A stretch of DNA of 2,876 nucleotides, from NCBI RefSeq assembly GCF_003334315.1, contig NZ_QOWR01000107.1; one strand, given 5' to 3'. Below the pieces are notes generated by a model. That model was given only the letters and a program-made list of their open reading frames with translations. It had not been told where the DNA came from and did not search any database. Source of the DNA: Escherichia coli (GTDB lineage Bacteria; Pseudomonadota; Gammaproteobacteria; Enterobacterales; Enterobacteriaceae). Positions 1,110 to 1,800 of the stretch are shown here, piece by piece (position 1 is the first letter of the stretch; each line of letters opens with the position of its first letter). Position numbers and translations under genes: made by a program.

Positions 1110-1800
1110 CTTGTAAAGCCTTTATCGTTTTTTTATGCTCTGGATTAATATAATCACTACATCTATCTGAGCAATCTGTTGTTGATGGACATGTCAACCC
1201 ATGGTCATTTACAGCCAAGTCTTTTTTATTATCTTCAATCATTTCAGAATGGGATAGCTTTACTTTTCTGCCGTACATACCGAACAGATTTAACCCGTAA
1301 TCTCTAATCTCTTTTTCATAACCCAGCCCTTTCGCCGATCGGCTAACACCAGCGTCATTTAATTTAGACACTCGACAAAATGCCATACAATGGAAAAATT
1401 GATTAGTCCCACCTAAATTTAATCTCTTCATATCTTCATAAGTATCAGATAATATATCCCATGCTCTTTGATGGTTTAGTTGATCTTTTCTTCTTATTAG
1501 CGCTACATCTGCGGGACTTAACCCTAATGGATCAATACCATTCACCGGATTCAGCGGATACGCATACAGACTCCATCCCCCCTCCAGCCCTATCGGGTCC
1601 TGAGTGATATACCGCCCCTGCAACGGATCGTAGTACCGGTTCCGGTTGTAGTACAGCCCCGACTCCTTATCATACTGCTGCCCCGGCAGCCGGTACGGCT
1701 GGTGCAGGTGATGCGGGTTCTCTTCATTCAGCTGGTTGCCCCACTCATCATACTCCCCGCTCCACGCAATGTTTCCATCCGCATCCATCAGCGCCAGCAT
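1090..1800 (-). CDS. ylbH: Orphan Rhs C-terminal module (236 aa): 94 codons of Rhs core homology then a distinct ~142-aa toxin domain; possibly a silent or pseudogene-like stored toxin tip
   Basis: Seen in sequence: translation begins [94 protein letters not shown], i.e. Rhs core tail with DPLGL at 1519..1533. This segment is about 80% identical (by-eye protein comparison, 11 differences in 54 aa) to the core tail of the upstream Rhs gene. The ATG at 1798..1800 overlaps the immunity TAA (1800..1802) and has no obvious SD. The 711-nt size and 1-nt overlap match my recollection of K-12 ylbH (unverified). Confidence 0.8.
1093..1518 (-). other. Orphan toxin domain (~142 aa), unrelated to the main toxin domain; activity unknown
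   Basis: Seen in sequence: AT-rich segment after DPLGL encoding [142 protein letters not shown]. It has five Cys, including HCxxxC and CxxxDCxxxC spacings. No similarity to the main toxin domain is visible. Confidence 0.65.
1519..1800 (-). repeat. Rhs core 3'-end homology block, orphan copy (direct repeat partner of 2715..2876 and of sequence beyond the window)
   Basis: Seen in sequence: 1519..1680 aligns without gaps to 2715..2876 at a constant offset of 1196 nt, with high nucleotide identity (e.g. gggtcctgagtRatataccgcccctgcaacggatcgtagtaccggt shared). 1681..1800 presumably matches core sequence to the right of the window. Confidence 0.85.

Follow-up and report, generated by a model that had tools for sequence, protein, structure and literature searches.

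A retained Rhs core block at the rhsD locus of Escherichia coli: probable footprint of toxin-tip displacement and weak substrate for tip switching

Does the direct repeat of Rhs core sequence at the rhsD locus of Escherichia coli act as a working switch between two toxin tips, or does it record an exchange that has already taken place? Antagonism between strains owes much to Rhs tips, for which arrays of orphan tips represent a reserve of alternative toxins. We analyzed a window of 2,876 nt, by which we mean the whole stretch of E. coli DNA under study, in which two copies of the Rhs core 3′ end each lead into a different tip. The initial annotation presented this repeat as a built-in recombination substrate for tip switching. 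The comparisons described here indicate that the repeat is probably the footprint of C-terminal tip displacement at the rhsD locus, and that it constitutes a weak, inefficient substrate for tip switching in the window.

Megablast against 5,426 complete E. coli genomes places the window at the rhsD locus. Nucleotides 123-2876 are 99.9% identical to the rhsD-ybbC-ylbH-ybbD region of K-12 MG1655, which here lies on the minus strand. In MG1655 these genes are annotated as rhsD (b0497), ybbC (b0498, PF15631), ylbH (b0499), and ybbD (b0501), the last two as pseudogenes. The rhsD 3′ end occupies 2876..2208 and comprises 54 codons that correspond to the end of the RHS core profile, then 168 codons with DUF4329. 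It is followed on the same strand by a 122-aa open reading frame (ybbC, 2168..1800), by a 236-aa frame (ylbH, 1800..1090) in which 94 codons matching the end of the RHS core profile precede 142 unrelated codons, and by an 86-aa frame (1109..849) that is the remnant of ybbD. The window departs from MG1655 at three points, namely residue changes from D to N (1404) and from T to I (2443) and the second ybbD frameshift (751/752). Nucleotides 1..122 are the terminal part of an IS3 element that adjoins the locus outside the Rhs module; MG1655 lacks it, while a transposase is annotated there in L001, a genome with 99.9% identity to the window, and the element end is also found in the closest genomes, for example NZ_CP058725. 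The rhsD-ybbC-ylbH-ybbD locus of E. coli is carried as well by CASFSC010000074.1 (L010), a 3,995-nt contig labelled "uncultured Alistipes sp." that is almost certainly a mis-binned E. coli contig.

Nucleotides 1519-1680 and 2715-2876 form a 162-nt direct repeat with a spacing of 1196, in which a repeat search and a direct count both give 129/162 identical positions (79.6%) and no gaps. All other offsets on both strands yield a mean of 39.6 matches (SD 5.9, maximum 63), corresponding to z = 15 for the repeat, and the gap-free alignment reported in the initial annotation is borne out in full. Mismatches fall at codon positions 3, 1, and 2 in the proportion 18/12/3. The block has a GC content of about 60% and is set in surroundings of 30-40% GC, the flanking tips being AT-rich. 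Just below 1519, identity over 20 nt is 25%, and the repeat stops at the final codon of DPxGL. Since the window ends at 2876, inside the partner copy, the remainder of that copy was read in L001. There, all of 1519-1800 is homologous to the partner without gaps (227/282, or 80.5%), and BLAST of the two blocks with the L001 partner returns 84% over 252 nt. Identity drops to 19% immediately beyond 1800, so the homology ends at the orphan ATG and the ybbC stop. The expectations that the orphan copy spans 1519-1800 and that its partner extends past the window thus proved correct, as did the estimate of about 20% amino-acid divergence between the two tails: 43/54 residues are identical within the window and 74/93 over the two blocks.

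Both copies match the same end positions of the RHS core profile. The main copy (2715..2876, minus strand) is the 3′ end of the rhsD core, annotated as rhsD in L001 and MG1655, and covers positions 1208-1261/1261 of the NCBIfam RHS_core model and also matches TIGR03696; about 120 nt more of the block lie past 2876, together with the rest of the 4.28-kb gene. The orphan copy (1519..1800, minus strand; 282 nt or 94 codons) forms the start of ylbH, covers RHS_core 1169-1261/1261, matches Pfam RHS (PF03527), and is 100% identical to ylbH (b0499) of MG1655. A PxxxxDPxGL motif marks the core/tip boundary in both. By direct comparison, the longest exact run between the copies is 34 nt (1607..1640, partner 2803-2836), followed by runs of 26 nt (1697-1722), 15 nt (1675-1689), and 14 nt (1592-1605). 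The z score, the in-frame coding match, and the profile support mean that the similarity does not reflect low complexity; with the third-position bias and an RHS core match in both copies, a chance resemblance was rejected outright.

The tips themselves are unrelated (BLASTP E = 0.5). The RhsD C-terminal tip (2208..2714, minus strand; 168 aa, GC 30-40%) matches DUF4329 (Pfam PF14220, E = 4.9e-37), and its presumed immunity gene is ybbC (1800..2168, minus strand; 122 aa, YbbC/YhhH family, PF15631), whose product has a lipoprotein-like N-terminus (LFAC). The orphan tip (1090..1518, minus strand; 142 aa) also ends full-length rhsD in Sakai and other strains. Searches assigned it to no family, giving weak SAA/OCRE matches in Pfam, a best E value of 0.3 in the PDB, and nothing in PADLOC. 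The window carries a private C-to-T change at 1404 (plus strand) that turns the D of GGTDQFFHC, a motif of the orphan toxin, into N. All twelve other sequences, MG1655, L001, and Sakai among them, have D here. The change may be inactivating.

The presumed immunity gene of the orphan tip, ybbD (620..1109, minus strand), overlaps the end of the tip and matches NCBIfam NF011297 over 86/86 and NF011298 over 1-85/163 positions. Intact ybbD encodes 163 aa with an N-terminal transmembrane segment, and such alleles occur in several other strains. Alignment to them reveals two homopolymer frameshifts in the window, which leave the 86-aa frame at 849-1109. The first (864-870, T8 to T7 on the sense strand) is common to the window, MG1655, and O157:H7 Sakai; the second (752-757, A7 to A6) is private to the window relative to MG1655. 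Sakai ybbD has a different second frameshift.

According to the initial annotation, exchange between the two copies would remove the main tip together with its immunity gene (ybbC) and fuse the orphan tip to full-length rhsD. The geometry is as described, and the fused product exists at this locus. We searched the 5,426 genomes with a synthetic junction in which the orphan tip and its block are joined to 250 nt of rhsD core, a query short enough to exclude a single-piece score from the parental arrangement. It matches as one piece in 964 genomes, foremost among O157:H7 and O55:H7 strains, and a second query for the predicted recombinant gives the same count. In Sakai and ten other loci, the fused gene lies between ybbP and ylbG/mnmH, which is the rhsD locus, and ends in a ylbH-type tip followed by ybbD. 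Strains with the recombined arrangement, on whose existence the initial annotation had let its proposal depend, are therefore real, with the fusion at the same locus in 964 of the 5,426 genomes.

The two-tip K-12 arrangement is found in about 1,761-1,896 genomes. The orphan tip is present in 2,851, roughly the sum of the fused and two-tip classes; its alleles are at least 99% identical in 2,317 genomes and 95-99% identical in 533, and occur in both the fused and the orphaned state. Of the 1,896 carriers of the cassette of main tip and ybbC, 1,892 have it at 99% identity or more. A set of 11 from the 964 fused alleles, selected to cover the range of identity classes, was compared base by base. 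Relative to the K-12-type core, each shows 143-251 substitutions in 3.77 kb, distributed as a mosaic, and none is a clean single-crossover derivative of the K-12-type arrangement. With this many core substitutions, the sampled alleles are old, and none is a recent deletion product. A search for a recent deletion derivative by way of the predicted junction gave a best single-piece match of 98.8% (L011), in which the core is 164 substitutions away from the K-12 type. Several fused alleles retain an intact 163-aa ybbD beside them. We also observed that five of the 11 (L003, L004, L005, L007, and L012) carry a 1-nt insertion near a G-run just upstream of DPxGL (window 1577-1582, C6 on the plus strand and G6 in the sense direction), as a result of which full-length rhsD is divided between a core pseudogene and a tip frame of its own (151 aa). 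This G-run may be slippage-prone.

The arrangement is best explained by displacement. The near invariance of the cassette, the two allele classes of the orphan tip, the age and diversity of the fused alleles, and the kinship of the orphan with Sakai rhsD suggest that the fused state is the older one and that the two-tip state derives from it by insertion. In the older, resident rhsD, the present orphan tip (ylbH) would have formed the end of the gene, with its immunity gene ybbD behind it. An incoming cassette, made up of a short Rhs core 3′ end, the DUF4329 tip, and ybbC, would then have recombined into the core 3′ end, with a foreign core patch of 33 nt, starting with ATG, at its far end. 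The resident tip would thereby have come to lie downstream, still joined to 282 nt of core, so that the two core ends form direct repeats at a distance of 1196 nt. The two copies are only 80% identical because each bears polymorphisms linked to its own tip. We infer the direction (insertion rather than deletion), the mechanism (single crossover and circular intermediate, following the proposal of Jackson et al.), and a low present-day rate of recombination. The repeat could still recombine, either deleting the main tip and ybbC to yield a full-length rhsD with the ylbH tip, or swapping alleles between strains.

The assignment of resident and newcomer follows from the origin of the orphan block. 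Its synonymous pattern is of the rhsD/E type and not of the rhsA/B/C type, and the orphan, compared from block position 78 through its stop codon, has a single mismatch to rhsD of O157:H7 Sakai, which occupies the same locus. The initial annotation had derived the orphan from a different Rhs lineage than its neighbor; this was wrong, given a block of the rhsD/E subfamily with one mismatch to Sakai rhsD from position 78. On these sequence patterns, the orphan appears to be the resident rhsD tip and the newcomer the main tip with ybbC, which would have brought its own tip-linked core end.

Diagnostic sites within the block are harder to read. In fused alleles they are mosaic from block position 34 to about 210 and always of the orphan type in the last ~70 nt beside the tip. 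Placing the original crossover from these sites was attempted and abandoned, as the patterns are too mosaic and many states scored as "main-type" are the prevailing state in rhsA-E as a whole. The mosaic patterns probably stem from gene conversion among Rhs cores. The main copy is itself polymorphic among two-tip strains at positions ~90-120 (beyond 2876), with CATGTGTATCAGCC in MG1655 and CACCTGCACCAGCC in L001. The L001 variant CACCTGCACCAGCC matches the orphan and rhsE, and this polymorphism likewise suggests gene conversion among Rhs cores.

One crossover within the block can be mapped. Strain H14 (NZ_CP010177, L019) has the two-tip arrangement with an intact 163-aa ybbD, and its orphan joins two parental sequences cleanly. 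Up to block position 217, every informative site (34/34) carries the K-12 state, and beginning with position 287 every one (17/17) carries that of MLI114. The breakpoint therefore falls within window 1514-1582, which is where the retained core fragment has its 3′ end. The H14 crossover is an allelic exchange between strains and not an intrachromosomal deletion between the main and orphan copies.

The start of the orphan stands apart from the rest of the block. Its first 33 nt including the ATG (the X patch; 1768..1800, minus strand) differ at 14/33 positions from every full-length rhsD allele examined, and differ also from rhsA/B/C/E; full-length cores encode PLALISE(D/E)GNT(A/V) at this place, and the ATG of the patch stands where intact cores have CCG. 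The patch is also present in H14, which indicates that it travels with the ybbC cassette. A degenerate-codon scan for its donor over one genome per species returned a single match, the mis-binned E. coli contig labelled Alistipes, and a protein search with the first 69 aa gave short E. coli fragments only and no full-length Rhs with the patch. At the junction (window 1798-1802), the TAA stop of ybbC overlaps the orphan ATG as TAATG, an arrangement that is kept in H14. The overlap could couple translation of the 236-aa ylbH frame to that of ybbC; no Shine-Dalgarno-like sequence was found before the ATG (upstream ...CTACATAGTAAATA). Among the rhsA, rhsB, rhsC, and rhsE loci of MG1655, those of rhsA and rhsC have annotated downstream pseudogenes that resemble orphan fragments. 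Among these, yibJ is the only one confirmed to combine a retained core end (456 nt) with a DPxGL motif, and neither yibJ nor ybfO has a start codon overlapping the preceding stop.

How well does tip displacement hold against other accounts of the same block? If the repeat were a working switch, RecA would drive exchange between its two copies again and again within lineages; the main tip and ybbC would be lost, full-length RhsD would acquire the ylbH tip, and the new toxin would confer an advantage. We regard this as unlikely. The copies are indeed direct and in frame and end at DPxGL, and to this extent the description as a built-in substrate stands; it is overstated for copies that share 80% identity with longest exact runs of 34, 26, 15, and 14 nt. 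The two longest runs do reach the minimum of about 25 nt that Shen and Huang reportedly determined for RecA pairing in 1986. Divergence of about 20% cuts RecA-dependent, MutS-policed exchange in enterobacteria by orders of magnitude, and a comparable reduction is expected here. In Salmonella LT2, where the process has been demonstrated, the homology is 95% over 522 bp against 80% over 282 nt at rhsD (PMC3967940). The product arrangement does exist in nature, and the block has served as a crossover site at least once, in H14; nonetheless, 0/11 fused alleles are clean single-crossover derivatives (143-251 core substitutions), and the best single-piece match to the predicted recombinant is 98.8% and not ~100%. 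Moreover, ybbD is frameshifted in the window, so a switch would yield a cell without intact cognate immunity to the new toxin, and ybbC would be lost as well. The opposite history, which starts from the two-tip K-12 arrangement as the ancestor and produces the 964 fused alleles through deletions between the repeats, is very improbable. The Sakai rhsD block is main-like over its first ~33 nt and orphan-like after, and this turn near position 33-78 is what a deletion predicts; it is compatible with both the insertion and the same event run backwards, in which a crossover close to the block 5′ end would cause the deletion. The first ybbD frameshift (T8 to T7), common to Sakai and the K-12 type, can also be cited for deletion, yet it fits either direction, or repeated slippage in the homopolymer. 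What weighs against this history is the diversity of the fused alleles, some of which combine an intact ybbD with a 95.6% divergent tip and are not derivable from a K-12-type module, together with the near invariance of the supposedly ancestral cassette and the need for a tip to have been attached to a full-length gene at some time in order to function.

The core block might instead have been kept for its expression signals, either an internal promoter and start like Salmonella P2 or an ATG coupled to the ybbC stop, so that the orphan pair is a toxin-antitoxin-like module and not a recombination substrate. Stårsta et al. reported a promoter 89 nt upstream of the PxxxxDPxGL-coding sequence, within the conserved block of main and orphan genes and also in E. 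coli, and argued for toxin-antitoxin-like expression (PMC7043789); genomic SELEX places RNA polymerase sites around ylbH/ybbD (PMC3946193). The orphan frame is intact at 236 aa, and its TAATG overlap with ybbC is retained in H14. A consensus scan of the window, however, found no sigma-70-like site on the minus strand within either block and a whole-window count no higher than in shuffled sequences, and the ATG lacks a Shine-Dalgarno-like sequence ahead of it. In addition, both K-12 and the window have ybbD as a pseudogene, which is hard to square with an active cytoplasmic toxin, and ylbH is annotated as a pseudogene in MG1655. We consider this account improbable, if somewhat less so than the deletion history. 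A further idea, as doubtful as that history, is that the DUF4329 tip and ybbC cassette with its X patch ATG would turn the displaced resident tip into a translatable frame co-transcribed with rhsD-ybbC, which would stay expressed as a toxin-antitoxin-like or addiction module, while the cassette would spread between tip alleles by crossover in the retained block, as in H14. Tip displacement thus remains our preferred reading.

The orphan repeat is an annotated feature of the K-12 genome, of a kind that has been described and tested elsewhere, and as such is already known. The module has a core fragment, a PxxxxDPxGL boundary, and an unrelated AT-rich tip that is found on full-length rhs elsewhere, all of which agree with an orphan (dissociated) rhs-CT/rhsI module; the presumed immunity gene directly behind the tip is frameshifted twice in the window and intact in other strains. 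Of the features of an LT2-type switch, it shows the direct in-frame repeat and lacks long near-identical homology and a functional orphan immunity gene. In Salmonella Typhimurium LT2, Koskiniemi et al. (2014) described recombination between rhs-main (STM0291) and rhs-CT-orphan (STM0292) (PMC3967940). As at rhsD, a full-length rhs gene is followed by an immunity gene and then by an orphan tip with a piece of core as a direct repeat, and crossover would fuse the orphan tip to the full-length gene while deleting the main tip and its immunity gene (PMC3967940). The differences lie in the length and identity of the repeat (522 bp at 95% in LT2, 282 nt at 80% at rhsD) and in the immunity genes, both of which are functional in LT2, whereas that of the orphan is frameshifted here (PMC3967940). 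Junctions were detected experimentally in LT2, with a duplication that preserved the main immunity gene (PMC3967940). The comparison serves as a calibrated negative: an active switch should be read from a main/orphan repeat only where the copies are highly identical and the immunity gene of the orphan is undamaged.

The locus agrees with the model of Jackson et al. (2009), who proposed C-terminal displacement by a single crossover with a circular intermediate (PMC2935791). As in that model, dissociated tips lie downstream of an intact rhs gene, each with part of the core; a tip found displaced in one strain is attached in another; GC-rich cores contrast with AT-rich tips; and exchange stays within one core clade (PMC2935791). 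Jackson et al. found E. coli clade I loci to be generally without dissociated tips, and core fragments to be identical or nearly identical to the upstream core (PMC2935791). Here, by contrast, the orphan fragment is 80% identical to its neighbor and takes its first 33 nt from a third source. The cdiA-CT/cdiI and rhs-CT/rhsI orphans of Poole et al. (2011) similarly consist of a tip with a short conserved stretch and an immunity gene downstream of a full-length gene, and are fused to full-length genes in other bacteria, just as the ylbH tip is in other strains; those orphans are without translation initiation signals, whereas ylbH has an in-frame ATG that overlaps the preceding stop (PMC3150448). 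The window is a textbook example, in the best-studied E. coli strain, that introduces no new mechanism. To these known systems the comparison of 5,426 genomes adds a natural history, with a resident tip, an arriving tip, and one mapped crossover in the retained core block.
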